Shown here piece after piece: positions 945 through 64,000 of a DNA stretch of 64,000 nucleotides (positions are counted from its first letter, which is position 1; each line of letters opens with the position of its first letter). Position numbers and translations under genes: made by a program. The stretch covers positions 86,928 through 150,927 of IMG/VR virus record IMGVR_UViG_3300049919_000418; one strand, given 5' to 3'. Source of the stretch: a virus (lineage: Duplodnaviria; Heunggongvirae; Uroviricota; Caudoviricetes). The notes beneath the pieces were generated by a model. It was not told where the DNA came from. It did not search any database and saw nothing but the letters and a program-made list of their open reading frames with translations.

Positions 945-947
945 TTT

Positions 948-3403: not shown

Positions 3404-3475
3404 CAAGAGCGCTGGCACCGGCCACGCTGGAGCCTGAAATCACGAGCGACGTTATGGCCGGTTGACCAAACGACA

Positions 3476-3856: not shown

Positions 3857-3951
3857 CGACAAGGATCTGGCGCGGCGGGCGCTGGACTCCGAATAAACCA
3901 ACAAGGCAGCTCCCGCCGTTGCCAGCATCCACTTGTCAGCCTTTCTTAATT

Positions 3952-4477: not shown

Positions 4478-4513
4478 CCCAGACGCGGGCGCGAAAAGGA
4501 AAGTAAATGACAC

Positions 4514-5116: not shown

Positions 5117-5154
5117 CTCTCCCGTGGAGGAATAATCACTAACGACTCAACAAA

Positions 5155-5493: not shown

Positions 5494-5661
5494 CAAAAAT
5501 AAATGGGACGAATTACAAAATAATTCTTCACAAACAAAAAACGCGGTGTAAAAGAAAGTAATGAATCTATTAGATCGTCAACAGTATCTCCCGGAGTGGT
5601 TGCAAAACCACGGGGCGAGTGACGTTTAATACTTTTCATTAAAATTCATTTATTTGTGCCG

Positions 5662-5696
5662 CCCCAAGAGACTAGATCTTTTGGGGTTGTTTGTTT
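5662..5696 (+). terminator. hairpin CCCCAA-13nt-TTGGGG followed by TTGTTTGTTT
   Basis: perfect 6-bp GC-rich stem plus T-rich tail between GC island 1 and the tRNA cluster. Confidence 0.4.
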
Positions 5697-5899
5697 AAAT
5701 GACCTATTCCAAGCTAACTTGGAATTTATGTTCTTTGAAATATTCATAATTATTTTTTGAGTTAATAACTCAAAAAGGTGTTGACAGTATCGGATTTTCC
5801 GGTATTGTTCGCACATCAACACGGCGGGTTCTGGGAACAAGAATCTCTCCAAAAGATTTTAGCAGAATTCAATTTTCTGACGCCGTGCTTTTTAACAAA

Positions 5900-5970
5900 A
5901 GAGGATTGGTGTAATGGCAGCACCGGAAATTTTGAATTTCTTAGTCAAGGTTCGAGTCCTTGATCCTCTG
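5900..5970 (+). tRNA. tRNA-Gln(UUG) candidate
   Basis: manual fold: acceptor AGAGGAT/ATCCTCT, T-arm CAAGG-TTCGAGT-CCTTG, anticodon loop TTTTGAA. Confidence 0.5.
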
Positions 5971-5975
5971 CATAT

Positions 5976-6047
5976 GGAGCGTTCGTATAGTGGTTATTAC
6001 CCTAGCCTGTCGAGCTTGTGAGAGGGATTCAATTTTCCTACGCTTCG
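5976..6047 (+). tRNA. tRNA-Asp(GUC) candidate
   Basis: manual fold, 72 nt: acceptor GGAGCGT/ACGCTTC (one G-U), T-arm AGGGA-TTCAATT-TTCCT, anticodon loop CTGTCGA. Confidence 0.45.
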
Positions 6048-6182
6048 CTTAAAAAAACAAAAATAAACGTTGACTTATTTGAGAAATTGGATAGTATAAC
6101 GACATCGTTGGAGAGAATCCGGCGACAAAATTCAAACTTAAGGAGGGTGCGAAAGCGGTCAACTTCTTCTGTTTGAATTAAA

Positions 6183-6255
6183 CAGGGTATAGTGTAACTT
6201 GGTAGCACGGGACGTTTGGGACGTTCTGGTTTCAGTTCAAATCTGAATACCCCGA
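6183..6255 (+). tRNA. tRNA-Pro(UGG) candidate
   Basis: manual fold: anticodon stem GGACG/CGTTC loop TTTGGGA, T-arm TTCAG-TTCAAAT-CTGAA. Confidence 0.45.
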
Positions 6256-6444
6256 CCGTTAAGTAAAAATAACATAGAGTTCAAACATAACGAGTGCGAG
6301 GGAGTAAGAAAACCCGCTAATTTTGGAAATTAGAGACACTAGGAGCATTACCTAGGCATTCGACGTAATCAATAGTATAAATGTATTATAGCGCCCGAAA
6401 GTGGGTTGAAGATGCGGGCTTTGCACCCCGATTGATTATATTTA

Positions 6445-6516
6445 GCTCTCGTCGTCTAGTGGCTAGGACGCCGGTCCTTCAAATCGGAGAAGACGGGTCG
6501 GAACCGTTCGGGAGCA
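6445..6516 (+). tRNA. tRNA-Glu(UUC) candidate
   Basis: manual fold, 72 nt: acceptor GCTCTCG/CGGGAGC, D-loop TAGTGGCTAG, anticodon stem CCGGT/ATCGG loop CCTTCAA. Confidence 0.45.
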
Positions 6517-6714
6517 CATATGGAACATGTTCCAACAAATCGAGAGAAATCTCAGGTAGCAACAAAGCATCTTTATTGGTGTCGATGGTGCGACGGTGAT
6601 CTTGTTGGAAATCATGGGAAGTGTGGGCGTTGTAATAGACGGCAATATAGTAAAAAAAGAAAAATAAAATAAATAGGTCGGTGTCTCCAAACGGAATCTG
6701 TAAAATTCCCGTCT

Positions 6715-7620
6715 TTAAACACTTGGAAAGTTGACATGAGGTGCGTTACCTCCACTGGCCACATTAGAATTTAATTTCTGCCAATATCCCCTTGGGGGTT
6801 TATTGAGTGAATGTTTCTTACAGAATTTGCCTATAGCAGAGTCGGAAACGCCAAGATCTTTGGAAATACTTACAGTTGTCTTTTCAAATAAAAGTTTTTG
6901 CATTTCAAACGGACTCGGCCAAATAGCTTTAGTTTTTTTCATTTTACTGTTTTCTTTAAATCGAATTAATGGGTTTTCTTTCATAATTTTCTTTACACGA
7001 ATATGAAAATTTCTGTCGTAACTAATGCCAAGATAACAATCGAGATGCGATTTGGACGTTACTATCGGGATCGTTTCTTTTATTTGCTCATCTGAGAAGT
7101 TCTTGGTTTTATAATTGCGACCCTCTTGAAATTTGTTTTTGCCTCCGAAAGTGTCGGTTTGAGAGTGGCAGTTTGGACAAAGAAAGCAAAGATTTTCGAT
7201 ACGGTTGTCGTTATTGACACCATTTTTATGCTCTAATTGTAAAACTAATGATGTCCCCATCCAATTTCCAGAGTTTTTGCATTTTTTACAACATTGTTCA
7301 ATTAAATTAAATTTTATTATATTCAATTTAATTGATTGCCTATCTTTTTGACAGTTTTCTACAAGAAACTCCGTGAGGAATCTTTCTTTCGTTATTTTTC
7401 GTGCGAAAACAGAGGATTCGGTTCTGGACATTATGTGAGAGGTATCGAGAGAAAGTTCTTTGATTCTATTTTGAATGTTTTTTGAAATTCCGCCGACATT
7501 CTTGACACCAAAAAAGTCTGAGATATCTTTCATCCTTTTACTGGATGACACTAATTTTACAAATTCTTCGTCAAGGATTGAATAAATAATTGATTTTTTA
7601 ATTTTCATAGTATAAAACAT
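6715..7620 (-). CDS. HNH homing endonuclease with C-terminal helix-turn-helix
   Basis: CPNCHSQTD HNH-type motif; C-terminal ISKDLGVSDSAIGKFCKKHS HTH-like; minus strand among plus-strand genes as typical for free-standing homing endonucleases. Confidence 0.55.
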   Translation of the reverse strand: MFYTMKIKKSIIYSILDEEFVKLVSSSKRMKDISDFFGVKNVGGISKNIQNRIKELSLDTSHIMSRTESSVFARKITKERFLTEFLVENCQKDRQSIKLNIIKFNLIEQCCKKCKNSGNWMGTSLVLQLEHKNGVNNDNRIENLCFLCPNCHSQTDTFGGKNKFQEGRNYKTKNFSDEQIKETIPIVTSKSHLDCYLGISYDRNFHIRVKKIMKENPLIRFKENSKMKKTKAIWPSPFEMQKLLFEKTTVSISKDLGVSDSAIGKFCKKHSLNKPPRGYWQKLNSNVASGGNAPHVNFPSV

Positions 7621-7993
7621 TACACAGAAAGTGTGCTAACGAGAATTAATTTATTGACTTTTTATAAAATCAATTTAAAATGAACACAAAAGCCTCATTA
7701 GTAGAATGGATATAACATTTCGCTTCGAACGAAATAAAGGGGTTTCGATTACCTCATGAGGCGCATATGAAATATTGGCTTATTAAATGTCGCTACGAAT
7801 ATTGGTGTCAAGGTTACGAATGGACAACCGATACTTTTTTAGTTAAAGGAAAAACATTTAAAGCGGCTTGTGAGGTTTTAAAGGTGTCAAAGAAAAACGC
7901 CGAATGTTTCGAGAATATGACAATAGATTAACTTTCATCTTGACAAGATGGGCGAATCCTGTTAAGGTTCGCCCACTACAAATTAATTAATTA

Positions 7994-8644
7994 ATGAAAA
8001 AGAACTATACTCACATTTCAATGATTCTCGACCGCAGCGGTAGCATGACTTCAACTTGGAACGATGTTGTTGGCGGATATAAAAGCATGGTTCAGGAAAA
8101 CAAAGCTACGCCCGGAGATTGCACTTTCACATTGGCGGCATTCGATCATGAATACGAACTTGTTGAAGACTTTACCAATATTCAAAATGTTAATGATGGC
8201 TTGACGATCAAGCCAAGAGGTTCCACGGCATTGCTTGATGCGATTGGCCGCACTGTTGTTTCTGTTGGTGAAAAGCTTGCCAAGTTGAAGGAATCAGAGC
8301 GACCAGAAAAGGTTATTGTGGTTGTGAATACTGATGGGCAGGAGAACGCTTCTACAGAATTTAAAAGAGACGAAATTAAAACGCTAATTGAGGAGCAAAC
8401 CTCTAAATATAATTGGCAATTCCAATTCATTGGAGCGTCTTTAGATTCAGTAAAGGACGCCCAATCTTGGGGTTTTCAAGCCGCGAATACATCTGTGTAT
8501 GATACCAAAAACAGCGGGGATACATTTACGTTACTTGGAAGTAAAATGGCAGCTATGAGGTGCGCGTCGACTCCAGACGCATACGCAAAAGCCGCACAAT
8601 TTAGCGACGAAGATAAGGCAATTTTAAACGCATCAAAGATTTGA
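7994..8644 (+). CDS. von Willebrand factor A (vWA) domain protein
   Basis: MIDAS motif ILDRSGSM (DxSxS) and VVVVNTDGQEN. Confidence 0.65.
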   Translation: MKKNYTHISMILDRSGSMTSTWNDVVGGYKSMVQENKATPGDCTFTLAAFDHEYELVEDFTNIQNVNDGLTIKPRGSTALLDAIGRTVVSVGEKLAKLKESERPEKVIVVVNTDGQENASTEFKRDEIKTLIEEQTSKYNWQFQFIGASLDSVKDAQSWGFQAANTSVYDTKNSGDTFTLLGSKMAAMRCASTPDAYAKAAQFSDEDKAILNASKI

Positions 8645-8649
8645 TTTTG

Positions 8650-8891
8650 GATGGCCAAGTGGCGAAATGGTAAACGCGGCGGCTTCACGTTAAAAAAATA
8701 ATCCGCCATTGGCAAAATGGTAAAGCGCCACCTTAAGGGGGTGGATTTTCCCGATTCGAGTTCGGGATGGCGGACGGTAAGTGGTGAAATGGTAAACACC
8801 GGGCGGCAGTCCGTTTAGGGTTCGATTCCCTTGTTGGACCGCAAGGCGAAGCTAGTTTGGAACATTGCCCGTTCGACTCGGGCCTTACCAA
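8650..8891 (+). other. second tRNA-like cluster with three tandem D-arm-like units (GG[CT][GA]AAATGGTAAA[CG][GA]C) and two T-arm-like hairpins; may include pseudo- or intron-containing tRNAs
   Basis: units at about 8661, 8712, 8783; GGTTCGATTCC and GCCCGTTCGACTCGGGC T-arm-like motifs; boundaries not resolvable by eye. Confidence 0.4.
8703..8774 (+). tRNA. tRNA candidate (72 nt) with unusual anticodon loop TTAAGGG (apparent AAG)
   Basis: acceptor CCGCCAT/ATGGCGG perfect 7 bp; anticodon stem CCACC/GGTGG; T-arm CCCGA-TTCGAGT-TCGGG. Confidence 0.45.
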
Positions 8892-15746: not shown

Positions 15747-15887
15747 AACTATTTTTTATAATTTTAAAAACAATCTTTGTCGGCGTTCATAGGGCGAGGC
15801 GAGCCAAAAAGCAATTCGCGCAAAAAAGACGCGTCGAATGGGCGAAAAAAGCTTGACGCGCTGCGAATGATTTCTTAATCTTCACGC

Positions 15888-17834: not shown

Positions 17835-18349
17835 AAATTCTATTAGGAGTAACAGGCAGCGTTGCGGCAACCCTCACGGGAAAGATGCAAGATCAACTTT
17901 ACGGAATGGGCCATACATTTAAAACGGTTGTTACAAATTCAGCTTTAAATTTCAACGACGACGAGTGGAGCGGTTATCTTACCGATGAAAGTGAATGGAA
18001 TGAATACAAATACTATAGAAAAGTATTACACATCGACCTTATCAAATGGGCCGATGTTTTCCTCGTTGCGCCATGCACCGCTAACACGCTTGCCAAAATG
18101 GCAAACGGGATTTCCGATAACCTTCTGACAAATTGCGCATTGGCTTGGCATTACTACGACAAACCCTTTTATTTCGCCCCTTCAATGAATGTAAAAATGC
18201 TTTCGCACCCTGCAACAATCAAAAATACGGAAACATTAAAATCTTTTGGCGCGATTTGCATTGAGCCGCAGGAAAAGAAATTGTTTTGCGGCGATATCGG
18301 AAACGGCGCGATGGCGGATATTTCAGAAATTTGTAAATTATTTCGTTGA
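17831..18349 (+). CDS. flavoprotein of the phosphopantothenoylcysteine decarboxylase (CoaC) family
   Basis: MKILLGVTGSVAA flavin-binding N-terminus; ATGA overlap with upstream ORF. Confidence 0.45.
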   Translation: MKILLGVTGSVAATLTGKMQDQLYGMGHTFKTVVTNSALNFNDDEWSGYLTDESEWNEYKYYRKVLHIDLIKWADVFLVAPCTANTLAKMANGISDNLLTNCALAWHYYDKPFYFAPSMNVKMLSHPATIKNTETLKSFGAICIEPQEKKLFCGDIGNGAMADISEICKLFR

Positions 18350-18380
18350 CACGGGCCGGATTATTTTTTAATCTTTCGGC

Positions 18381-41119: not shown

Positions 41120-41587
41120 TTGGATTATGACGCGAAGAAAAACGCGGAATATCACGTTGACAGGCATATGAAAATGCTCCTAGAGGGAATGCAATTAGTT
41201 TGCACCGCTTTTCACTTGCAGGGCGTGAATGCACCTTACAAACCGACCCACATAAACCACCCGAGCGCAATTTTTACACGAGCATCGTCGGAAAATTTTC
41301 AATTTGTAATTGATTATGTCGAGGCACTGAGCGAAGAGAACGTTTTCCGATATGGGAAGATTCATAAAAGCTCAATGCTTTTAAAGTGGGTTGACGATAA
41401 CCGACACCTCATGACCTTTCCCAAGGTTAAAATGACCGAATTCGCCCTTGCAATGCCTGAAAAATACAAAGACTCGGATGCCGTTAAGGCGTATAGAAAA
41501 TACTATGTCGGGGAGAAGCAGCACATTTTCAACTGGAAGAACAGGAGAACCCCCGGCTGGATAAAAATTTTGGAAGAAATTGGTTGA
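41120..41587 (+). CDS. hypothetical protein
   Basis: 155-aa ORF. Confidence 0.35.
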   Translation: MDYDAKKNAEYHVDRHMKMLLEGMQLVCTAFHLQGVNAPYKPTHINHPSAIFTRASSENFQFVIDYVEALSEENVFRYGKIHKSSMLLKWVDDNRHLMTFPKVKMTEFALAMPEKYKDSDAVKAYRKYYVGEKQHIFNWKNRRTPGWIKILEEIG

Positions 41588-41612
41588 CATGCGGCGAATG
41601 ATTAATTAATCT

Positions 41613-42071
41613 TTGCCTGTGGAATTCGAAAGAGAACAGTGGATAAAGGCTCGTGGCATATTTTTGGTTGAGCCAAAAATGGGGCGGATTGTTCTTGGAT
41701 TGGGCCATGACTTTACCAGACTTTACGCGTATTTCTTAGAAGAAGCTCACAAGCAACGATATAGCTACTCTGCATTTGGGGGTCATATTAGTATCGCACT
41801 GGAAAAAATTCACAAAAAAATAAACTACGCGGCGGCAAATCAATTTCGCGGCGAATGGGTTGATTTTGAATACAATCCAGACATGATTACTGGCGGAAAA
41901 AAAAGCGGAGTGCCTAACTATTGGTTGCGAGTTAGAAGTTCTCGAATTGATGAAATTAAAAAGATCATCGGAGTGGTGGACGATTATCGACACTTGGGAA
42001 GCCATATTACAATCGCTTCTCATAAAAACGGTGTTCGCAAATATCAGAAGCAAGCGATTGAAATTCGATAA
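41613..42071 (+). CDS. hypothetical protein
   Basis: 152-aa ORF. Confidence 0.35.
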   Translation: MPVEFEREQWIKARGIFLVEPKMGRIVLGLGHDFTRLYAYFLEEAHKQRYSYSAFGGHISIALEKIHKKINYAAANQFRGEWVDFEYNPDMITGGKKSGVPNYWLRVRSSRIDEIKKIIGVVDDYRHLGSHITIASHKNGVRKYQKQAIEIR

Positions 42072-47695: not shown

Positions 47696-48757
47696 ACGAT
47701 ATGAATTGGGTTAAAAGCAAAGAAGACGTTAAAAAGTTGAATAAAATTCACTTTGCGGCGTTAAAATTCATCACGATGGCAACGCCGGGGTTATGATGCG
47801 GCGACCCAATTGACTACACTGAAGTTCGCGAGTATATTGCTTTTGCCGATGAAGCGGAAATGAGCGGGTGGGCCATCAATCAGGAAATGCCTAAGCATGG
47901 TAGCCCAATAAAAATTATATAATCATCCGGTCTGAGCTTCTTGAGGTTGAAATCAAAACAAATATCGTTATTAAGTGACTAATAGATCTAAATTTATTGT
48001 ATTTCGGGATATTGATGATCCAGAAATCCAAGTATGTCTTGACAACGGGGAAAATGTTGTTATAGTTTTGGGCAAGGAGCACTTCGAGATGAAATCGCGG
48101 TATAATTCACTTGGGATCTTTTTGAGTTTACATGATTTTGGAAGAGACGATTGCATTTACGGAAAACACCTTTCGCGGGACTGCGAAGATATTGAAACAT
48201 TTTTAAAATTAGCAAAACAATACTTAGGATTATGATCGACGCGCAAGACGCCAAAAGAATGGCAGACGAAAAACTGGCGATTAGTTGGGTGGAAGTAAAA
48301 TAACATGAAAACATTTTATCGGGTTTGTAATCCAAACACTCAGCAAGGACTTTGGTATGATTTTGAAGGTAATTTTACCGGATTGATTCATGACAAATTT
48401 TCTTTTTGCGCAAATTCAGAACTGGAAATGGATTTCGATCCTGAATTGGTGGGTTGGTTGTCCGCTACGGATAATTACCCCGATCTTTTAAAATGGTTTC
48501 CAGAAAAAGACATTTTGGAGTTGCAAAAAGATGGTTGGCATGTTCACACTTACGAAACCGAAAATTACAGGCTTTACGAGAGATTCCAACATTACGTGAT
48601 TTGTCAAAAAACAAGTCGGCTTGTTGATAGGCTATTGATTATGCCTCAAAATGAAAAACAAATGGAAAATAATAACATCCGCGCCTTGTTCAGCTCTTCG
48701 GGGGTGGAGTGAAAATAAATGATTTAAAATGTTGACGTTAATCAAACTGTAAAATAG

Positions 48758-48805
48758 GGTCTTCTCAGTTGCAGCACGAAGCGCAACCCAAACAACCAAA
48801 TCAAA
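48758..48805 (+). promoter_or_regulatory. conserved island leader GGTCTTCTCAGTTGCAGCACGAAGCGCAAC + A/C-rich spacer + ATG (copy 1)
   Basis: near-identical to 58319..58365; contains hairpin GTTGC-N-GCAAC. Confidence 0.6.
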
Positions 48806-49099
48806 ATGAAAATCAACCGCACCACTAACAGTATCGCCGCCGCCACCGAAATCCTTGACTGGCTCAATGACCGCGCAGAGCGGGGAATCCAAGATCCCGT
48901 CATCAGCGTCCGCGATGGCGACCTCCTGTTTTACAACGCCGCCTGTGGCATTCAGGACGACGAGACTGTCCTCATCGAACGTGCCGAGCAAGATTCATTC
49001 GGGATGGGATGGGGTGATGCCGAGGCCACAGCCGAGGACGTGCTGGCATGGATCGAAGGCAACTGTGAACCGCAAGAAGGGGAGTTCGAGGATAACTGA
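48806..49099 (+). CDS. hypothetical acidic protein (GC island 2)
   Basis: 97-aa ORF, GC-rich codons. Confidence 0.45.
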   Translation: MKINRTTNSIAAATEILDWLNDRAERGIQDPVISVRDGDLLFYNAACGIQDDETVLIERAEQDSFGMGWGDAEATAEDVLAWIEGNCEPQEGEFEDN

Positions 49100-49108
49100 A
49101 ATCCAAGG

Positions 49109-49351
49109 ATGAAAAATGAACCAATGAAATACGAAGCTCAAATAAACGCCGCGCTTGATCACATCTTCAGAGGCATGGAGAAGCCGTGGATGGATGACGA
49201 TGACAAACGACAAATCCGAGAAGAAACGCTAGCCCAAATGGCCAGTCAGGGCGCAACGAAAGAAGTGATGAATGCACAGATCGAAGAAGGGGTGAAGAAT
49301 GGATACAGCGTCGAACGTCAACTGGCGATCATTCGAGAGTTCCTCTGCTAA
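49109..49351 (+). CDS. hypothetical protein (GC island 2)
   Basis: 80-aa ORF. Confidence 0.4.
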   Translation: MKNEPMKYEAQINAALDHIFRGMEKPWMDDDDKRQIREETLAQMASQGATKEVMNAQIEEGVKNGYSVERQLAIIREFLC

Positions 49352-49394: not shown

Positions 49395-49480
49395 CAAAAC
49401 CGACTCCGCCGCTATCCCCGTTAGAGCACGCGCCGCCGCCGTTGAGTGGCGAGGCGAGGTTTACGCGAATACCCTCTCTT
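49395..49480 (+). repeat. degenerate attC-like fragment (GAGCACGCGCCGCCGCCGTTGAGTGGCGAGG)
   Basis: matches the left arm of B-type copies (compare 57560-57600). Confidence 0.4.
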
Positions 49481-56138: not shown

Positions 56139-56280
56139 ATGAAAACTAATAAAATTGGAGCGGCAGCCCCTCTTGAATCTCTGCCGAACGTCAAATGTCC
56201 GCCCACGGGCGCGAACAAAAAGGAGATTGAACCGCAACAGGAAAGCTTATCGCCCGTTGGTACGCGACAGCTTGTTGTGC
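56139..56280 (+). repeat. attC-like repeat A1 (leader 56139-56182; 98-bp core 56183-56280, GCCGAAC...GTTGTGC)
   Basis: core identical in length and near-identical in sequence to A2/A4/A5. Confidence 0.65.
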
Positions 56281-56409
56281 CTTCTTCATTTTTGTGGGAA
56301 AGGATGCTTAAGGAACAGCCATGGGCGGAAGCTGAAGCAAAGGTAATAAATGCGGACGATGAGGTTCTAAAATATATCCTTGATAACGGAAGGGGCTTCC
56401 CGTCCGAAA

Positions 56410-56862
56410 TCACACAGATTCAGTTGTGTCGGAACATTCAGAAGTTGGTAAATCAAATGGAAGACCCACGGATGAGTAAAAATCCAGAGCATCTTGAGAA
56501 CAAGGCCAGTGCTCTAAAAGAGCTTCGCGAAAGTATGGACCATCCATCCTATATTGTGAATCCCCCACGGGAACCTTAAGCTTGGAAATCGTAAAATGGT
56601 AAATATTCACGCTATCTTCGCCCTTGTCTGTGTTTGGATTAGGTTCGTGCGCCAGAAAATCAATCCCGACAATCGCCAAATTCTTATTGAGAACCTTTGG
56701 AGTCACGCAACAACCGCTGGCGTAAACGGCAAACAAATCATCCTTGCGATGGACACGGGGAAGATTATCCCAACGGGCAGGAGGGATATCGTGAATCTGC
56801 CAATCCTGCAAACCCCTCAATGAACTAAAAAGATCTTCTGTTAAATAATAGGACTTGGACAT
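56410..56862 (-). CDS. hypothetical protein (array cassette ORF)
   Basis: 150-aa ORF with ATG; start abuts repeat A2. Confidence 0.45.
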   Translation of the reverse strand: MSKSYYLTEDLFSSLRGLQDWQIHDIPPARWDNLPRVHRKDDLFAVYASGCCVTPKVLNKNLAIVGIDFLAHEPNPNTDKGEDSVNIYHFTISKLKVPVGDSQYRMDGPYFREALLEHWPCSQDALDFYSSVGLPFDLPTSECSDTTESV

Positions 56863-56865
56863 AAT

Positions 56866-57016
56866 ATGAAAACTAATAAATTAAAATTAAACGCCGCCGA
56901 AAAGGAATCTTCGTTTCTGCACAACGTCAAATGTCCGCCCACGGGCGCGATTGAAAAAGTGGTTGAATCGAAACAGGAAAGCTTATCGCCCGTTGGTGCG
57001 CGACAGCTTGTTGTGC
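56866..57016 (+). repeat. attC-like repeat A2 (leader 56866-56918; 98-bp core 56919-57016, GCACAAC...GTTGTGC)
   Basis: fills the entire gap between two minus-strand ORFs. Confidence 0.7.
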
Positions 57017-57058
57017 CTTCTTCATTTTCTTCTGTGGGTGGAACTCCATACACAATGC

Positions 57059-57535
57059 TCATGGGGATACAGGGAGCGCAAAAACAAGGTCGGTTATTCG
57101 AATCGCCTCTGGACCCTCTAAGGGGAAAGAATCTTTCACTGTTTGGCGTCCCTCCCCATTGCCTTCTTCGCTATACTTCGACAAAAGGTGAACCTGTCCC
57201 TCCCGAACATCATCTACAATCCATCCGTGACATGATGAACCATCACGGTTCAAACAATACAAACCAACTATTCGTCCCGACTTCAGTTCTTCTTGAAGAC
57301 GGTCGAGAAATGATTGGCCTGTGGATTGATCGTGGATCTGGAAATGTAACCCCTCAATATCTTGGTCACGAAAATGCGTTAAGCCCACGTTCTCGTCCCG
57401 ATACTTATGCTGAAGATCGTAGAAACCCATCGGCACCTTCTCATATGCCTTCAGAATCATCTCAATCAACGACGGCGAGCATGAAGCAAGATACTTTTGG
57501 TGGTGCTGGTCAACAACTTGAGAGATTGGAATCAT
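57059..57535 (-). CDS. hypothetical protein (array cassette ORF)
   Basis: ORF-track 57059..57574 trimmed to internal ATG (MIPISQ). Confidence 0.4.
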   Translation of the reverse strand: MIPISQVVDQHHQKYLASCSPSLIEMILKAYEKVPMGFYDLQHKYRDENVGLTHFRDQDIEGLHFQIHDQSTGQSFLDRLQEELKSGRIVGLYCLNRDGSSCHGWIVDDVREGQVHLLSKYSEEGNGEGRQTVKDSFPLEGPEAIRITDLVFALPVSP

Positions 57536-57647
57536 TGGAGTCTTCGTTTCTGCACAACGTCCCAGAGCACGCACCGCCGCCCCTGAGTGGCGAGGGCGTT
57601 GAAACTGAACCGCTTATGGGCGGTTGTTGTGTCTCGCCTTGTTCGGC
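57531..57647 (+). repeat. attC-like repeat B2 (partial leader; 96-bp core 57552-57647, GCACAAC...GTTCGGC)
   Basis: B-type middle GAGCACGCACCGCCGCC..GGCGGTTGTTGTGTCTCG. Confidence 0.65.
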
Positions 57648-57748
57648 TTCTTGTCTTCGACTGGAGATTGTTGATTCAAAAGACGGCGCAGCGATAACAT
57701 GGGTAGAGATAAAAGTAGGGGCGATAAGCCGTGAAACGGTGAGAATGG

Positions 57749-58096
57749 TTAAGGCGTTCGAAATTCTACTTCGTGATCTCCAATATAAGGAGGCAAAGTC
57801 CCGCCCCAATAGCTCGGTATATCTTCTTCAGGTTGTGTGGCCAGATGGATCGCGAAGTCCTTCACAATCTCTTGCAGAGTGGACAGCGGAACTTGAAGGC
57901 GAGCTTCGCTAAAACTCAATGTCTCTGTCGCTAATACGTTGTCGAAAATATCCACGATGATGTTCCTCGCTTGTAAATACTCGCGGAACTTCCAAACGAG
58001 GGCTTCTGGACCAATACAGGAAACGCCATCTACGTTTTCTTTGGGTTCCAGCTCTTCTTTGATTGCTTTGGCTTCTGTTATTTCTCGTTGTGTCAT
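57749..58096 (-). CDS. hypothetical protein (array cassette ORF)
   Basis: 115-aa ORF with ATG. Confidence 0.45.
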   Translation of the reverse strand: MTQREITEAKAIKEELEPKENVDGVSCIGPEALVWKFREYLQARNIIVDIFDNVLATETLSFSEARLQVPLSTLQEIVKDFAIHLATQPEEDIPSYWGGTLPPYIGDHEVEFRTP

Positions 58097-58109
58097 AAAT
58101 AAAAATAAT

Positions 58110-58245
58110 TAAATGAATAGTAATAAAATAAACGGCGCGGCAGCGCCTCTTAATATTCTGCCGAACGCTGAGCCCATCCGCGCCGGGGTGGACTCCGCTT
58201 AAAACAATACGGCTTATCGGCGTCGGATGCGGCGTCTTGTTCTGG
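58110..58245 (+). repeat. divergent attC-like repeat (leader ATGAATAGTAATAAAATAAACGGCGCGGCAGCGCC; 86-bp core 58160-58245, GCCGAAC...GTTCTGG)
   Basis: same terminal heptamer pair and GGCTTATCGG centre; dyad ATCCGCGCC/GGCGTCGGATGCGG. Confidence 0.55.
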
Positions 58246-58318
58246 GTCTTTTTGAGCTCGGAAAAGAAAGTGAAAATAAATTGAAATAGTGCTTGCGGAA
58301 AATCAAACCGTGAACTAA

Positions 58319-58365
58319 GGTCTTCTCAGTTGCAGAACGAAGCGCAACTGAACCAACCAAACAAA
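58319..58365 (+). promoter_or_regulatory. conserved island leader GGTCTTCTCAGTTGCAGAACGAAGCGCAAC + spacer + ATG (copy 2)
   Basis: near-identical to 48758..48805. Confidence 0.6.
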
Positions 58366-58821
58366 ATGCAAACCATCAAAATCCTCGCCATCGTCAAAAC
58401 CGGAACCACCGAGTCTCTGATGCGCGTCCCTCAAGTCACCGTCCGCGAGGATGGAACTCTCTGGGCCAACAACAACACGATGCCGCTCACCAATAGCAGC
58501 GGCACGCTGAACAAGGACAGCCTCCTGCCACTGATGACCGCCAAGGCATGGGACAAGATCCCCGCCGATAACTTCCTCCGCCTCGGGGTCAATCCGGGAG
58601 AAAAAGAAGCCATGGACGACAAAGACGTGGACGCCCGCCGCATCGACAGCCGGACACCGGAAGAAAAAGCAGCACACGCCGCAGCAGCGGACCGCGCCAA
58701 GAAAGCGCGTCAATACGACCTGATCCACAATGAGGGCGGAGAAGGCTACAACCCATACCGCGATCAAGCTGAAATGGTCGATAACACCCCATGGATGAAG
58801 GGCGACGACCAAGCCGACTGA
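58366..58821 (+). CDS. hypothetical protein (GC island 3)
   Basis: ATG 58366 in frame of ORF-track 58330..58821; GC-rich. Confidence 0.45.
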   Translation: MQTIKILAIVKTGTTESLMRVPQVTVREDGTLWANNNTMPLTNSSGTLNKDSLLPLMTAKAWDKIPADNFLRLGVNPGEKEAMDDKDVDARRIDSRTPEEKAAHAAAADRAKKARQYDLIHNEGGEGYNPYRDQAEMVDNTPWMKGDDQAD

Positions 58822-58850
58822 AACTCAAAACCCCAACAGAAATCACGAAA

Positions 58851-59075
58851 ATGAAAACGATAAATCTCAAGCACAGCCTCGCCAGTGGAGGAAATCTCAT
58901 GCCACAGCAAGCAGGCGCAAAGCCCGGCTATCGCAACGGCTGCATGCCCGCATGGCTCGACAACGTGGACGCATCGCAGGCCGGGAAGAATCTCTACCGC
59001 GCCGAAAACCTCACAGAAAACCAGCTCGCCACCGTACCAGACTGGTATCGCGAAAAATACTGCCAACCCTCATGA
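58851..59075 (+). CDS. hypothetical protein (GC island 3)
   Basis: ATG 58851 in frame of ORF-track 58791..59075. Confidence 0.4.
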   Translation: MKTINLKHSLASGGNLMPQQAGAKPGYRNGCMPAWLDNVDASQAGKNLYRAENLTENQLATVPDWYREKYCQPS

Positions 59076-59260
59076 CTCCAAAACCAACCAGAGGCGGAAC
59101 AAGAAAAGGCGCGGGGCGCAAGCCCCGCGATACTCCCCGCGAAGCAATCACCGTGCGGATCGAGCCGCAGGACGCGGACAAGCTGCGGGATCTCTGTAAT
59201 GCACGGGAGATGTCTCAGGCCGATTGGATCACCGAAAAAATCAGAAAGTCCCGCCAATGA
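59072..59260 (+). CDS. small Arg-rich ribbon-helix-helix-like DNA-binding protein (GC island 3)
   Basis: ATGA overlap; TVRIEPQDADKLRDLCNAREMSQADWITEKI resembles RHH (CopG/Arc) fold. Confidence 0.4.
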   Translation: MTPKPTRGGTRKGAGRKPRDTPREAITVRIEPQDADKLRDLCNAREMSQADWITEKIRKSRQ

Positions 59261-59261
59261 T

Positions 59262-59365
59262 TTCTCCCCAGAACGTTAAATGTCCGCCCACGGGCGCGAA
59301 CAAAAAGGAGGTTGAACCGCAACAGGAAAGCTTATCGCCCGTTGGCGCGTGACGCCTTGTTAGCC
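59262..59365 (+). repeat. attC-like repeat A3 (no conserved leader; 98-bp core 59268-59365, CCAGAAC...GTTAGCC)
   Basis: starts 2 nt after the RHH stop; GC island occupies the position of the usual leader. Confidence 0.65.
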
Positions 59366-59578
59366 TTCTTGAATTTCTCTTATGTATTTTTCGGTTTCAG
59401 ACTCTTCCCGGTTGGGATTTTCTTTGCATTCTTTTAATTGGTGTCTCCTAACGTCATTCTCAGATTCAGTCATCGCGCCCAAATCATCTTTTGATGTCGA
59501 TGGGTGCTGTGATAAATAACCGCAAAACTCACAAACCGCATACGCAATCTTCCCATCGGAACTATAATAGGTCTTCAT
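59360..59578 (-). CDS. hypothetical protein (array cassette ORF)
   Basis: 72-aa ORF with ATG. Confidence 0.4.
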   Translation of the reverse strand: MKTYYSSDGKIAYAVCEFCGYLSQHPSTSKDDLGAMTESENDVRRHQLKECKENPNREESETEKYIREIQEG

Positions 59579-59796
59579 AAATAAAAATAAGTAATAAAGA
59601 AAATGTATCCACTAAATAAAATCGGCCCTTACGCGGCGTTGCCGGGGAAAACCATAAAAGATGTATCGCACGAAAACGCAAAATACGGAGGGTTCCAACT
59701 TTTCTTTACGGACGGTTCGGACATTCTTTTCGATTTTCCTGACAGGGGAAGCGGGCCAACGTTGACAGCTTATCCCGGAGAGTCTTTTAATTTCTT

Positions 59797-59924
59797 GGCT
59801 AACGTCAAAGAGCACGCAACCCTATCAGCGGGAGCGAGCGTCGATCACGGGGTTGAGGTTGGAACTACGCAGGAGCATGTGAACAGGGCGGCTGATAGGG
59901 GTTGCGTGTCTCGTCTTGTTGGTT
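59797..59924 (+). repeat. attC-like repeat B3 (128-bp core, GGCTAAC...GTTGGTT, longer variable centre)
   Basis: shares AACGTCAAAGAGCACGCAA 5' block and GTGTCTCGTCTTGTT 3' block. Confidence 0.55.
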
Positions 59925-59977
59925 GCTCTTCATTTTCTTTGAACGGTTTTGTGCCGACTGGACACCCGCCGATGTAT

Positions 59978-60421
59978 TCACCTGACCAAGCAGAGGCCAT
60001 GGCACTTCTTGTCCACCCAGAATTGGTTACTAAATGAAGGGAGAAAACCTGAACTTCCATCTTGAAAAGAAGTCCACAACTGAAACGAATCAGGCGTAAT
60101 CGAATGCAAAACGCTTGCATGATTCAGCTCGCTTGAGTCGCCTTCATTGAGTGAAACATGAGACAAAACGATAACCTTGGAATCCGAGTCAAACTTGCCC
60201 CGAACCACTTCAAAATCCCACTCGTCAGAAACGCCTAAAAATCCAAGACCGCTTAAAATAATCCCAAGTTTATCGTCTTTGGGCATTCCGAAATACTCCT
60301 CGCGAAAATAAACACTGTAACTGGCGCAAAAATCTTCAATCGAGGGCAAGCCGCAAATCTCCATGATGGCTCGCGACATACATCCATACTTCTTAAATTC
60401 TTCTTTTTGATATTCGATCAT
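59978..60421 (-). CDS. hypothetical protein (array cassette ORF)
   Basis: ORF-track 59978..60442 trimmed to ATG (MIEYQKEEF). Confidence 0.45.
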   Translation of the reverse strand: MIEYQKEEFKKYGCMSRAIMEICGLPSIEDFCASYSVYFREEYFGMPKDDKLGIILSGLGFLGVSDEWDFEVVRGKFDSDSKVIVLSHVSLNEGDSSELNHASVLHSITPDSFQLWTSFQDGSSGFLPSFSNQFWVDKKCHGLCLVR

Positions 60422-60563
60422 ATTATGAAAAACAATACGCAAATTAACGACAGACTCTTAAATTCTTCAACCAACGTCAAAGAGCACGCACCGCCGCAGA
60501 AGAAAAGCGACGGGAGCGCAACTGAGGAGCTAAACGGCGGTTGCTGTGTCTCGTCTTGTTGTG
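60407..60563 (+). repeat. attC-like repeat B4 (variant leader; 96-bp core 60468-60563, AACCAAC...GTTGTGC)
   Basis: B-type middle. Confidence 0.65.
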
Positions 60564-60868
60564 CCTCTTCATTTGGGGTAGAGGACGCTAAAAAACTATT
60601 CAACGATCCTTTAGTGGGAGCAATCAAAACAGAGGACTACGCGACATCATTACGCCTTGAGGATTATGTCAACCTCGATGGTATAGGTGACGCCTTTGTC
60701 TGGTCTTGCGCGCTCCTTGAGATACTCGATACCGAGAATCAAAGTGGCAGCAGTCTCACTCAGGGGGCCAGTGTTGGTGACTCGCCAAGTTCCTCCGGTA
60801 ATCGGATCAATCGTGGTAAGTTCTGATTCTGAAATGCGGGTAAATTCCATTGTGTTGTTTATGTATTG

Positions 60869-61435
60869 TTATTGTGCGAGCGACTTCATCGCGGAAATGA
60901 CCTTCTTGGCTTTACCTGCCGCCTCTCCAAAATCAATCGCGGCAAGCTGGCCACCGCGAATATTCTGCTTCCCACTTCCATGAACGGCAAACCAAAACGG
61001 CTCACGCTCCTCAATAGAAATGGAACAGGACGCCCCGCTCCACGAACCCCATGTCATTCCCGTCTCAAAAGCGACGAATCCATGGCCTATATCGGTAACA
61101 GTGTTGCCGTTCTGACGGATAGCCTTCTGCGCAAGACTCAACATCTGTTCCATCGTGGCGTTGAACTTCTTGTATTCCCTATTATACACGGGACGCTGTG
61201 GGATCATCTGCGCGAAAATCTCCTCATGAGACTCAAAAATCACCCATTCGGCAGTCGCGTCGTCCTTGGAGCAGGCGTGCAAAATGTGGACCTGTAACTG
61301 AGGCGCGTTGTCCTTGATGGCCTTGACATCCAACAGGGTCTTGGTGTGCGGGGAGGGATTGCCGCCAACCGCTACAAACCAATCGTCCTCAACCCCGTTC
61401 GCGTATTGCCAGCTTAGAATCTGATCGTAAGTCAT
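60869..61435 (-). CDS. hypothetical protein (array cassette ORF)
   Basis: 188-aa ORF with ATG; protein-like composition. Confidence 0.5.
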   Translation of the reverse strand: MTYDQILSWQYANGVEDDWFVAVGGNPSPHTKTLLDVKAIKDNAPQLQVHILHACSKDDATAEWVIFESHEEIFAQMIPQRPVYNREYKKFNATMEQMLSLAQKAIRQNGNTVTDIGHGFVAFETGMTWGSWSGASCSISIEEREPFWFAVHGSGKQNIRGGQLAAIDFGEAAGKAKKVISAMKSLAQ

Positions 61436-61449
61436 AAACCGTAATTAAA

Positions 61450-61597
61450 ATGAAAGACAAAAAATTAGTATTAAACGTCGAAGAGGAATCTTCATTTCTG
61501 CACAACGTTAAATGTCCGCCCACGGGCGCGACTGAAAAAGCTAAAGAACAGCAACAGGAAAGCTTATCGCCCGTTGGTGCGCGACGCCTTGTTCGGC
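61450..61597 (+). repeat. attC-like repeat A4 (leader 61450-61499; 98-bp core 61500-61597, GCACAAC...GTTCGGC)
   Basis: A-type middle TGTCCGCCCACGGGCGCGA..TCGCCCGTTGGTGCGCGAC. Confidence 0.7.
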
Positions 61598-61624
61598 TTT
61601 CTTCATATTCATTCAAGCTTAGAG

Positions 61625-61972
61625 TCAAATGGCGTTTGGAACGGGCATTGAAGTCTCTTCCAAGAATCTCAAAACTGCCTTATATCCGAAATCTTGACCT
61701 GCCCCGATCAGGCGTAGGGTCGCTTCTTCCTCATATGATACCTCGAACAGATTGGGAAATCCAACCCGAGCAGCTAAATACGTTATCCCCATGCCCACGG
61801 GACAAGGCGATGTTGATACGATCCGAGCGCCATTATTATAGTCTTCTAGCACTATGGCCTCGCAATGCAAAACGGGGACTGTCTGTCCCGAAGACAAAAG
61901 AAGAATCTGTTTCTTTTGCAAATTTTGTAACTCACGGGCTTCAGACGGGGAGATTTCTATCAACTTACTCAT
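61625..61972 (-). CDS. hypothetical protein (array cassette ORF)
   Basis: ORF-track 61625..62002 trimmed to ATG (MSKLIEISP). Confidence 0.45.
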   Translation of the reverse strand: MSKLIEISPSEARELQNLQKKQILLLSSGQTVPVLHCEAIVLEDYNNGARIVSTSPCPVGMGITYLAARVGFPNLFEVSYEEEATLRLIGAGQDFGYKAVLRFLEETSMPVPNAI

Positions 61973-61986
61973 GGGTGGATTGTTTT

Positions 61987-62084
61987 CTGCCGAACGTCCC
62001 ATGTCCGCCCACGGGCGCGACTGAGAAGGAGGTTGAAAAGTGACAGCGGAGCTTATGGCCCGTTGGCGCGTGACGCCTTGTTAG
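61987..62084 (+). repeat. attC-like repeat A5 (no leader; 98-bp core GCCGAAC...GTTAGCC)
   Basis: A-type middle, most similar to A3. Confidence 0.65.
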
Positions 62085-62429
62085 CCTCTTTCTTTATTTT
62101 TTTCTGTGGCATCGTATCGCCTGAGTCTCCGTGTGGGGACTTGGGCTTTCGGGTGCAATGAAATATAAAGTAAATAAATCAAATATAAAAAATGGTCTTC
62201 GTCGCTGCGAAATGTCGGCCATTATAGCAAAGCTTGCGCTGAGTGACGAAGATCTTCGGCTCGCTTGTCGTTCTCTTTCGCGCTCGCTAAAAGCTGCGAC
62301 TTCTGAGGCTCGGGAATATTCTAAGCGATCAATTCAAGTATCGCTGCCTGCTTCGTGGTCAGGGATGCTACACATTCAATCAGCGGGCGGATAATATCTT
62401 TTATTTCTTTTGTTATCATGGAATTTGCA

Positions 62430-62577
62430 ATTATGAAAAGTGACGAAATGGTTAAAAATGTTGAAGTCGGGAAATTTTCTTTGGCTAACGTCCAAGAGCA
62501 CACGCCGCCGCCGTTGGAAAGCCAAGAAACCGCAACTGAGCCGTTAGGGGCGGTTGCTGTGTCTCGACTTGTTGGCC
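62430..62577 (+). repeat. attC-like repeat B5 (variant leader; 95-bp core 62483-62577, GGCTAAC...GTTGGCC)
   Basis: B-type middle. Confidence 0.65.
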
Positions 62578-62820
62578 TTATTTTTCTTCTTTTGGGTTGT
62601 GCAGTCTATTGTGGTGAAAACCAGACTTGTGAATCGCCCCGACAATCGCTTGCTTTGCAGTATCGTGCGGAAAACTTTCGTCCTTGTATTCCCCTTCTGG
62701 ACAGGATCGGCACTCAATGTAGCCAGTCCACGAACCTTCAACAAACTTGGCGTGAACGTAATAGGAGATACCGTCTCGCTCAATCAACTGCCAATCGTCT
62801 CCTTGTGTAATTATATTCAT
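62578..62820 (-). CDS. hypothetical protein (array cassette ORF)
   Basis: 80-aa ORF with ATG; stop abuts repeat B5. Confidence 0.45.
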   Translation of the reverse strand: MNIITQGDDWQLIERDGISYYVHAKFVEGSWTGYIECRSCPEGEYKDESFPHDTAKQAIVGAIHKSGFHHNRLHNPKEEK

Positions 62821-62999
62821 TATTATTTTATGTTAAAAGAATCATTAAATCAGTTCGAGAACATCCTTCGCGGGAAAACCATTAAAAGCGTGAGCGCCGA
62901 ATACCATCGGCTTAGGCTAACTTGCGAGGACGGTGAGGAAATCATCGTAAAAAGTGAATTGGCGAAAGATGCGCCTCTTGGTTGTTGTCTTTTTGTTCT

Positions 63000-63094
63000 G
63001 GCCAACGTCCAAGTGCATACACCGCCGCAAGCGGAAAGAGACAGAAGCGCAACTAAGCCGTTATCGGCGGTTGCTGTGTCTCGTCTTGTTGTGC
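63000..63094 (+). repeat. attC-like repeat B6 (95-bp core GGCCAAC...GTTGTGC)
   Basis: B-type middle. Confidence 0.6.
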
Positions 63095-63220
63095 CATCTT
63101 CATCTTCCGATTATGTTAATCTGGGCGGCGGATTCCGGGACGACAAAAATAAGGTGTTCTACGAAAAGATAGGAGATAAAACGTATGAAATCCCATTCGA
63201 ACACATGGCCGTCTTGGTTA

Positions 63221-63493
63221 CTAGAATTGTAACTCAGGGTGTAATGACGGGCTTGCTCTCACTCGAATATCTTGAGACTCTTCTAAAAGGATATGAGGGG
63301 GTAAGGGGAAAAAAGATGATGTATTCGACTGTGCCCTTGTGCGCCGCGCCCTCCAGTCAACAATTAACGCCTTCGCCCGTTCAAAATCAATAGGTTTGTC
63401 ACTGTAAACAGAAAACAATATATTGCTAGTTGGGTCCGATACGGCAAAATAATGCTCGGGTAATTCAGCGGGAATATATTCAATAGTATTCAT
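63221..63493 (-). CDS. hypothetical protein (array cassette ORF)
   Basis: ATG (MNTIEYIP) is directly back-to-back with the ATGAAAAGTAAT leader of B7 (CATATG junction). Confidence 0.4.
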   Translation of the reverse strand: MNTIEYIPAELPEHYFAVSDPTSNILFSVYSDKPIDFERAKALIVDWRARRTRAQSNTSSFFPLPPHILLEESQDIRVRASPSLHPELQF

Positions 63494-63639
63494 ATGAAAA
63501 GTAATAATAAACAAATAAATGTCGCGGCGGAATCTTCAATTCTGCACAACGTCAAAGAGCACGCACCGCCGCAAATGGAAAGCCAAGAAACCGTGACTGA
63601 GGAGCTTCACGGCGGTTGTCGTGTCTCGTCTTGTTGTGC
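63494..63639 (+). repeat. attC-like repeat B7 (leader 63494-63543; 96-bp core 63544-63639, GCACAAC...GTTGTGC)
   Basis: B-type middle; best-conserved B copy. Confidence 0.7.
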
Positions 63640-63749
63640 TTCTTCCATTTCTCAGTGGATTGATTACGATGGACGACCAGTAATTCAGGTGAATGGTAAA
63701 ATGCAAATTGATTATCCAGTTCAGAAGCAAGCCCCGATTACCCTTTGGC

Positions 63750-63949
63750 TTATCTCTCTTCTAACGAAACGAGTCGATAGGATTCGCCGTCACAGTCATC
63801 TAAGACCCACTCCACTTCCGTCACGCGAGCGTCAACGTGCCTCTGCCCATTATAATGTTTAATCAAGTCGCCAACCCTGAAATTCAGTTCGGTTTCAATC
63901 GAATTCGGAATCGGTGCATCAGTATATGTAGTTTGGAATTTAGTAATCA
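63750..63949 (-). CDS. hypothetical protein (array cassette ORF)
   Basis: ATG start MITKFQTT; ORF-track 63750..63965 uses an upstream TTG. Confidence 0.4.
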
Positions 63950-63952
63950 TAA

Positions 63953-64000
63953 ATATGGAAAACAATAAATTAAAATTAAATGCCGCCGAAGAGAAATCTT
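63953..64000 (+). repeat. start of a further repeat leader (ATGGAAAACAATAAATTAAAATTAAATGCCGCCGAAGAGAAATCTT), truncated by window end
   Basis: matches A2/A4-type leader. Confidence 0.6.

Follow-up and report, generated by a model that had tools for sequence, protein, structure and literature searches.

What are the structured repeats of about 96 bp that separate the small minus-strand genes at one end of a phage genome fragment, and how could a virus for which no integrase is detected come to carry and use them? The fragment is a stretch of 64,000 nucleotides (positions 86,928 to 150,927 of IMG/VR record IMGVR_UViG_3300049919_000418, Caudoviricetes; hereafter the window), and it is part of a distant T4-like phage. 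The original prediction, made from the letters alone, read the repeats as attC-like recombination sites, that is, as an integron-like array of gene cassettes without its integrase, a cluster of attC sites lacking an integron integrase (CALIN). The explanation that best accounts for all of the observations below is that the repeats are genuine attC sites belonging to a family of sedentary integrons of Verrucomicrobiota, that the phage carries two CALINs, and that the integrase (IntI) of its host would serve them in trans; as a whole, this is considered highly probable.

The repeats themselves are not in doubt. A covariance model built from 12 window copies (R1) recovers, when run on the window, 12 co-oriented repeats on the plus strand at 56183-63639, with E-values for window copies of 1e-6 to 1e-29, and chance is therefore excluded. 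A second model (R2), built from copies in host arrays alone, recovers 17 window sites at 30-91 bits. A sequence-only nhmmer profile was far less sensitive than the covariance model and was dropped. All 12 copies listed originally for this region, and the extra one listed at 2822-2917, exist on the plus strand, two of them shifted by 1-2 nt from the positions first given (60469-60564 and 61989-62086). That list was nonetheless incomplete, as six further copies or remnants lie at 3386-5230, a lone box at 5443-5449 and a fragment at 49412-49455. The sites thus form array 1, at 2.8-5.5 kb (about 7 sites in 2.6 kb, more decayed than those of array 2), and array 2, which spans 56183 to about 64.6 kb and has 12 sites in 7.5 kb, or 14 with the extension seen in contig L126. 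Element lengths in array 2 are 95-98 nt, plus single copies of 86 and 128 nt, just as described at the outset; those in array 1 reach 166 nt. For attC sites in general the length runs from tens of nt to about 140 nt. Model-found copies in phage and host loci all lie in co-oriented arrays or at array edges, and the phage backbone from 6 to 48 kb has none, which is not the scatter without relation to gene boundaries expected of repetitive extragenic palindromic (REP) sequences or bacterial interspersed mosaic elements (BIME).

The anatomy of the element is that of an attC site. Its terminal AAC and GTT triplets are invariant across the window copies, as had been claimed, and are kept in 146-150 of 150 aligned genome copies (about 97-100%); the four outer box bases often deviate from the strict R/Y pattern of RYYYAAC ... 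GTTRRRY. The consensus fold of the plus strand begins with a closing helix of 4 bp, AACG:(C)TTGTT, which includes an invariant G-T wobble, and continues through an internal loop of 6/4 nt, equivalent to the unpaired central spacer between R and L boxes, into an L stem of 14 bp and a variable terminal loop of 40-110 nt. The L stem is interrupted by three single-base bulges, 3 bp apart and exclusively on the 3' arm, so that the unpaired 3'-arm bases first noticed by inspection reappear consistently on folding. The innermost bulge is T in 144 of the 150 genome copies (96%), the outer one is C or T, and about 70% of copies have the middle one, giving 2-3 bulges per site. In canonical attC sites it is the asymmetry of the extrahelical bases that sets strand choice. 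Two main sequence families, A and B, retain one common pairing, with compensatory changes at 6 of 18 pairs among the window copies, and the 86-nt copy at 58160 is a family C variant; the two families had been recognised correctly, and within family B the motif GGAAAGC attributed to both is present in part of the copies only. Across the 150 genome copies compensatory changes are found at 14 of 14 stem pairs, and 97.9% of cells are paired. Compensatory cells number 418 against 84.6 in shuffles, slid controls are 23-47% paired, and a covariation score of 0.49 compares with 0.115 for shuffles and 0.03-0.08 for slid partners, figures that favour structure somewhat since the alignment was fitted to the covariance model.

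The strongest evidence lies between the elements. At 11 of 11 junctions in the window the right box of one element and the left box of its successor are reverse complements (GTTCGGC with GCCGAAC, GTTCTGG with CCAGAAC, GTTAGCC with GGCTAAC, GTTGGTT with AACCAAC, GTTGGCC with GGCCAAC), and this box rule continues past the window end and holds in four other viral loci. With phage and host arrays pooled, 89 of 121 consecutive junctions match perfectly (7/7), compared with 7.7 perfect junctions on average, and never more than 16, in 1000 shuffled pairings, and the four variable bases are fully complementary within an element in just 29 of 217 cases. A perfectly complementary heptamer pair had been ascribed to every element. 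That description suits just 3 of 13 copies (56919, 63544, 2822), and its inaccuracy hid the between-element complementarity, which is the stronger signal. Given the box rule, it is the gene segment between two repeats, and not the repeat, with which the four variable box bases are inherited. In integrons the crossover falls at G|TT, which assigns the outer part of an R' box to the following cassette and leaves every cassette bounded by a complementary core and inverse-core pair. The box rule is the signature of integron cassettes.

Where, then, does this family of sites reside in bacteria? A scan of one genome per species found at least 120 loci with the element, strongly enriched for Verrucomicrobiota; Akkermansiaceae, Luteolibacter, Haloferula and Prosthecobacter are among the matches listed. 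These loci hold at least about 170 model-found copies in co-oriented arrays with a spacing of about 400-1000 bp and up to 8 copies in 6 kb. Integrons have been reported in Verrucomicrobia (Cury et al. 2016, PMC4889954). In four host loci (L007, L038, L041 and L070) the array adjoins an integron integrase, with scores of 324-413 bits for the TIGR02249 'integron integrase' family (cutoff 265) and with the IntI-specific insertion (..SW.WFW.FP....DPR....RRHH..) seen by eye in all four proteins. That the same family stands beside bona fide integrases supports the attC and CALIN reading proposed originally. The intI gene is at the right-hand end of the array, in model orientation, in 4 of 4 complete host integrons, and the interval between it and the last cassette contains a lone xxxxAAC box, whose match to the preceding right box marks the attI junction. 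In two loci intI is divergent from the array, the canonical arrangement, and in two it is transcribed towards it (L007 and L070 versus L038 and L041). Among 98 host cassettes having an open reading frame (ORF) of at least 50 aa, the longest ORF runs opposite to the element strand in 79. The bulges on the 3' arm, the position of intI and these opposite-strand ORFs together establish that the plus strand of the window is the attC bottom strand and that its minus-strand genes are co-oriented as in canonical integrons, both as first suggested. By the attC family that the phage has in common with them, Verrucomicrobiota (Akkermansiaceae or Luteolibacter-like) are its likely host group.

The phage arrays are CALINs, having at least two close attC sites and no intI detected in the scanned window ORFs. 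The Pfam scan covered plus-strand ORFs of at least 100 aa up to 56.2 kb, selected minus-strand ORFs and array ORFs on both strands, and the expected absence of IntI was borne out in it. Neither array is a complete integron: besides the lack of intI in the scanned ORFs, likeness to attI is weak, the sequence after the lone box of array 1 having weak similarity to host attI regions when aligned with them. Array 2 lies directly downstream of rIIA/rIIB. Contig L126 extends 743 nt past the window and shows that the array stops about 600 nt beyond the window end with right box GTTCGGC; this last attC is complete and is followed by phage sequence, namely an AT-rich promoter-like stretch and a plus-strand gene. 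The first left box of array 2, GCCGAAC, is complementary to that last right box, a relation taken to suggest that insertions, one after another, extended the array from a single ancestral attC of the phage.

Given that no integrase was detected in the scanned window ORFs, the arrays would depend on the IntI of the host. The enzyme would act in trans on the folded bottom (plus) strand during infection, crossing over at AA|C (G|TT on the top strand), and cassettes could in this way be inserted, excised and reordered. The 14-site array would have grown by successive insertions into a single ancestral phage attC, and the phage-like base composition of most of its cassettes suggests a pool that may circulate among phages and between phage and host. 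A broader proposal is advanced tentatively, as a serious possibility that may well prove wrong: that T4-like and unrelated phages of Verrucomicrobia borrow host IntI for gene capture, exchanging small cassettes with one another and with their hosts.

The cassettes themselves are informative with respect to origin. The phage backbone has a guanine-plus-cytosine (GC) content of 40%, most array 2 cassettes have 41-46%, and host loci have 51-57%; the cassette at 58246-59267 and those at 3.4-5.4 kb are mostly host-like at 49-57%. Cassette proteins gave zero Pfam matches and no function from PHROGs, where the sole match, to a family of unknown function, is the plus-strand gene from ATG 3477 within ORF 3374-3856. 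The best evidence that cassettes move, and not whole arrays, is the recurrence of one of them with different neighbours. The 188-aa protein of 60869-61435 (minus strand) has an 84% identical homolog in metagenomic contig L158, again within an attC array, where the neighbouring genes differ and the 5' leader and GCACAAC left box are kept. On its other side L158 has a degenerate ATTGTGC in place of the GTTGTGC of the window, beside an attC apparently invaded by a group II intron. At about 2040-3060 of L158 an intron reverse transcriptase (RVT_1 + GIIM) occupies the place of the expected attC upstream of the 188-aa cassette, next to a remnant TTGTGC box, and the intron resembles the attC-targeting group IIC introns. 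A further homolog, 72% identical, is found in an ordinary bacterial locus (L156, 5001-6066), where it is followed by a homolog of the 56410-56862 protein, with type II secretion and glycoside hydrolase family 77 (GH77) genes nearby. The adjacency of the two homologs in L156 suggests that the 188-aa and 150-aa proteins, 4 kb apart in the phage, act together.

Array and phage are truly linked. The junction between the rII region and the array is reproduced at 99.99-100% identity in independent JGI and Logan assemblies from several samples, so the array is not an assembly chimera; in one independent contig Phage_T4_rIIB and YqeY are annotated immediately before the array, and the assemblies differ by one small indel in the high-GC cassette. 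One window cassette protein is carried by a 166-kb database contig, according to its database cluster. Searched by blastn, the array has no match among 50,697 phage records. About 20 other viral contigs carry the same attC family and have nothing else in common with the window, as was already so for the first four viral loci from the exact-pattern scans, and some of these contigs carry portal, major head, protease or terminase genes. One such copy, in contig L002 from an unrelated phage, is 93.5% identical to the attC at 2822-2917. In another, the 46-kb contig L144, 7 attC sites of the family at 546-4095 are followed at 5025-5990 by a gene for an IntI-like tyrosine recombinase (best family TIGR02249, 194 bits, below the cutoff of 265). 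Contigs L133 and L150 share this attC and recombinase region, and an ORF next to it resembles by eye a phage-type tyrosine integrase. The L144 locus may be a complete integron in a temperate phage.

Several points weigh against active use of these sites by means of a host integrase. No recombinase, tyrosine or other, was found in the scanned ORFs of the window, and tblastx revealed no convincing case of a cassette common to the phage arrays and any of the ~120 sampled host loci. The few independent contigs, all colinear, contain no cassette-order variant and no excision junction. Sites of array 1 are partly degenerate and lie inside plus-strand ORFs, so part of the system may be inert. Textbook attC sites have two extrahelical bases, and many copies of this family have three. 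Rfam at gathering threshold on the window returned tRNAs alone, the element matching no family. Finally, T4-like phages usually shut the host down fast, which leaves little time for IntI expression.

Some of these same points can be accommodated if the sites are attC by descent and now inert, blocks of host integrons having been captured through illegitimate or homologous recombination and then reshuffled by phage homologous recombination between the ~96-bp repeats, much as proposed for the promoter-early stem-loop (PeSL) modules of T4-type phages. This explanation is regarded as rather unlikely. It draws on the want of a detected integrase in the scanned ORFs, the truncated and degenerate sites of decayed array 1, the lack of polymorphism among sampled contigs and the efficiency with which T4-type phages recombine over short homologies. 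Further, a crossover anywhere in the conserved core would likewise keep box and cassette linked, and the box rule alone is thus no proof of site-specific exchange. It is less easily reconciled with the base composition of most array 2 cassettes (0.41-0.46, against 0.51-0.57 in the host), which together with the lack of any match to sampled host arrays makes recent capture en bloc unlikely. Nor would inert relics be expected to score, as the sites of array 2 do, as well as host sites on the host-only model, to end in complementary outer boxes of the kind left by insertions into one resident attC, or to have, for one of them, a 93.5% identical counterpart in an unrelated phage.

Whether the element might instead act in RNA, or encode part of a protein, also deserves consideration. 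As a signal on plus-strand transcripts it could be a terminator, an RNase III-type processing site or a hairpin for translational control. The invariant G-T wobble and other G-T pairs do make the plus strand the folding strand, most phage genes are on that strand, and a Shine-Dalgarno sequence and start codon occur in several loops (window 4195 and about 62030; also contigs L004 and L003). The box rule, the arrays beside integron integrases and the orientation of most cassette genes on the top strand would be left unexplained, no Rfam family matches, and such a function, very improbable as the primary one, would at best be a secondary role of attC sites. The repeat as a protein-coding module, supplying an N-terminal or linker peptide (..L-x-N-V-K..) to plus-strand proteins, is scarcely credible. 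In its favour, 9-10 of the 13 window copies have no stop in the frame where AAC is an Asn codon, plus-strand genes lying upstream run into the element in this very frame, both here and in other phages, and gene callers called ORFs through the elements. Families A and B, however, differ by 2 nt in length, which puts the right box in different frames; substitutions keep base pairing and not amino acids; copies 58160, 59268 and 61989 contain in-frame stops; and the frame is open in just 18% of host copies. A conserved plus-strand peptide is rejected on these four grounds. In addition, the overlapping minus-strand ORF 56410-56862 has a full-length bacterial homolog, and the peptide has zero Pfam or PHROG family matches.

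The features of the two arrays are collected in the table below.

Table. Features of the phage attC arrays, in window coordinates. Boxes are given as left / right; R1 and R2 are scores from the window-built and host-only covariance models.
Feature	Position	Strand	Description
attC, first of array 1	2822-2917	+	family B; GGCGAAC / GTTCGCC
truncated attC	3386-3465	+	by eye; left box GGCGAAC matches previous right box; inner stem, no right box
degenerate attC	3851-3941	+	right box GTCAGCC; R1 34 bits
attC	4149-4244	+	GGCTAAC / GTTCGGC; R1 60.8, R2 67.3 bits
attC, enlarged loop	4464-4629	+	166 nt; right box GTTCGGC; + ORF 4514-5116 begins in loop
degenerate attC	4831-4920	+	GCCGAAC / GTTCTGT; in frame within + ORF 4514-5116
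degenerate attC	5104-5230	+	GCCGAAC / GTTCGGC
lone left box	5443-5449	+	by eye; GCCGAAC; end of array 1, then AGAGTGTTAT...; position equals attI junction in host integrons
isolated attC left-arm fragment	near 49412-49455	+	by eye; after two higher-GC + genes, 48806-49351
attC 1	56183-56280	+	family A, 98 nt; GCCGAAC / GTTGTGC; R1 101, R2 80.3 bits
cassette gene, 150 aa	56410-56862	-	ORF, coding potential; similarity of L156 homolog reaches 56422
attC 2	56919-57016	+	family A; GCACAAC / GTTGTGC; R1 103.3, R2 87.3 bits
cassette gene, 158 aa	57059-57535	-	ATG 16 nt from left box of attC 3
attC 3	57552-57647	+	family B, 96 nt; GCACAAC / GTTCGGC
cassette gene, 115 aa	57749-58096	-	ORF, coding potential
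attC 4	58160-58245	+	family C, 86 nt; GCCGAAC / GTTCTGG; R1 42.3, R2 46.3 bits
large cassette, inverted genes	58246-59267	+	GC 0.55, host-like; flanks GTTCTGG ... CCAGAAC
genes in 58246-59267 cassette	58366-58821 (from ATG); ORFs 58791-59075, 58952-59260	+	
attC 5	59268-59365	+	family A; CCAGAAC / GTTAGCC
cassette gene, 72 aa	59360-59578	-	ORF, coding potential
attC 6	59797-59924	+	128 nt, long terminal loop; GGCTAAC / GTTGGTT; R1 30.6, R2 42.8 bits
cassette gene, 147 aa	59978-60421	-	coding potential; likewise 147 aa in independent contigs
attC 7	60469-60564	+	family B; AACCAAC / GTTGTGC
two-gene cassette	60650-61435	-	66 aa, 60650-60850; 188 aa, 60869-61435
attC 8	61500-61597	+	family A; GCACAAC / GTTCGGC; R1 103.2, R2 91 bits
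cassette gene, 125 aa as called	61625-62002	-	alternative internal ATG near 61972 possible
attC 9	61989-62086	+	family A; GCCGAAC / GTTAGCC; loop with GAAGGAGG, then GTG
attC 10	62483-62577	+	family B, 95 nt; GGCTAAC / GTTGGCC
cassette ORF, 80 aa	62578-62820	-	best coding potential in cassette; gene caller chose overlapping + ORF
attC 11	63000-63094	+	family B, 95 nt; GGCCAAC / GTTGTGC
attC 12	63544-63639	+	family B; GCACAAC / GTTGTGC
attC 13, conserved left flank	63952-64000	+	attC 13 and 14 just past window, visible in L126

One site for each small minus-strand gene, as originally described, is an approximation, in that 58246-59267 holds plus-strand genes and 60565-61499 two genes. In the cassette of the 72-aa gene a small plus-strand ORF from 59603 runs into attC 6. 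The minus-strand ORF at 56410-56862 is real, and the plus-strand ORF 56139-56579 that overlaps it probably is not, because the former has a bacterial homolog. For the last four cassettes the indications of the coding strand diverge: minus-strand ORFs have the better coding-potential score, and the gene caller picked plus-strand ones. A conserved AT-rich leader of ~50 nt recurs at 56863-56911, 61447-61495, 63491-63539 and 63952-64000, where it separates the left box from the start of the minus-strand cassette gene, and is common to unrelated cassettes and to the L158 cassette. Integron cassettes do not usually have such a 5' leader, which may serve as a promoter or as a signal for translation. 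A different sequence of 66 nt, 85% identical at 48740-48805 and 58301-58366, precedes two blocks of higher-GC plus-strand genes and may be a cassette-borne promoter or leader.

In array 1 a direct repeat of 110 nt (2748-2857 and 3322-3431, 88% identical) has duplicated the left flank and left half of an attC, and its second copy continues into the truncated site at 3386-3465. An insertion by recombination between an attC and a secondary site could have produced array 1 and the lone box at its end. Such insertions outside att sites are reported to occur in bacterial genomes (bioRxiv 10.1101/2022.09.11.507474).

Reading frames through the elements form a separate set of observations. The Asn frame is the one in which co-oriented upstream plus-strand genes enter the element without a stop, as at 59603 and 62831 in the window. 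Through-element plus-strand ORFs are found in the window at 56139-63862, 2697-3035 and 4514-5116, in L002 at about 3230-4025 and in L004 at 1626-2528; the gene running into the site is glycosyltransferase-like, by eye, in L002 and RNA-ligase-like in L004. Strong Shine-Dalgarno sequences (AAAGGAG or GAAGGAGG), followed at a suitable distance by ATG or GTG, lie in attC loops at window 4178-4197 and about 62015-62032, at about 641-660 in L004 and at about 1885-1900 in L003, and a bottom-strand ORF begins within the loop; in the attC at 4149-4244 the loop supplies AAAGGAG and the ATG (4195) of a plus-strand gene. The open Asn frame is treated as a lineage effect or as tolerated read-through and not as a function of the element, because families A and B differ in frame at the right box and because substitutions keep pairing and not peptide.

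Elsewhere the window encodes rIIA (by tblastn to T4-type phages), an ATP-dependent DNA ligase, several RNA ligases, ThyX, NAMPT and an N6/N4 DNA methylase. A tRNA cluster occupies 5900-8775, with 6 tRNAs by Rfam and 4 by ARAGORN (Gln, Pro, Arg, Leu). The cluster also encloses a minus-strand ORF of 301 aa (6715-7620), HNH-like by eye, which was considered as a candidate integrase and set aside, having zero recombinase or other Pfam matches. A promoter-like motif, TTGAC..N..TAATCTT, stands upstream of plus-strand phage genes at 15846-15882, 18339-18375 and 41577-41613.

How do these arrays compare with known systems? The original supposition that phages of this sort had no known attC arrays is outdated, a survey of 10,705 phage genomes having yielded 3 complete integrons, one In0 and 17 CALINs (Qi et al. 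2023, Front Microbiol, PMC9892861). The CALINs of that survey include some in virulent phages, and IntI1 recombined five of the six phage attC sites assayed. Like those CALINs, the present arrays are integrase-less and have cassettes mostly of unknown function. In the parts of PMC9892861 covered here, the arrays are described or drawn as small (a minimum of 2, with 3 attC in TJE1), compared with 14 and about 7 here, no Verrucomicrobia phage is named, and the term 'T4-like' is absent from the text. Compared with the CALINs described there, the attC family here is tied to a chromosomal host IntI and recurs in about 20 other viral contigs, and most cassettes are phage-like in base composition. 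Phage attC arrays are therefore already known, though rare, and what stands out in the present case is size, the tie to an attC family of the host and to candidate integrases, the phage-like composition of most cassettes and recurrence among viruses.

Sedentary chromosomal integrons, such as the Vibrio cholerae superintegron with its Vibrio cholerae repeats (VCR), resemble the present loci in their long co-oriented arrays of similar attC sites spaced about 400-1000 bp apart, in the single small ORF that each cassette holds, for the most part on the top strand, in the box pair common to each cassette and, for the host loci, in the presence of intI and attI at one end. The phage arrays differ from them in lacking a detected intI and a convincing attI or cassette promoter (Pc), in residing beside rIIA/rIIB in a phage genome of about 40% GC and, in array 1, in having inverted (plus-strand) genes that start in the attC loop. 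The PeSL units of T4-type phages, which Arbiol et al. are said to have described in 2010 as 'mobile regulatory cassettes', reportedly consist of a promoter and a stem-loop and are recombined by homology, with no link to an integrase and with shuffling proposed to proceed via circular intermediates. Both are repeated structured intergenic elements that flank small ORFans in plastic T4-like regions, but those of the window are attC sites with R and L boxes and extrahelical bases, common to host integrons. REP elements occur scattered over the chromosome, in association with RAYT transposases. Together with BIME and palindromes resembling miniature inverted-repeat transposable elements (MITE), they share with the present repeat an abundance of imperfect intergenic palindromes of about 100 nt or shorter; what distinguishes the present repeat is its occurrence in co-oriented arrays next to integron integrases and its adherence to the box rule of cassettes.

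Few routes bring new genes into bacteria as fast as integron cassettes do, and many cassettes of chromosomal integrons are said to encode anti-phage defence systems. The occurrence of ~20 host-family sites in a phage, with phage-like cassettes and with about twenty other viral contigs carrying the same family, suggests that phages of Verrucomicrobia are regular participants in the cassette economy and not accidental carriers. The attC sequences also link an uncultured T4-like phage to its probable host group, and the approximately twenty ORFan cassettes are possible counter-defence genes. Should the borrowing of host IntI by these phages prove true, resident attC sites in plastic genome regions would give them access to a phage-adapted pool of genes, for example for anti-defence or host takeover. 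Integrons would then be not a purely bacterial device but a two-way market for genes between phage and host and between phage and phage.

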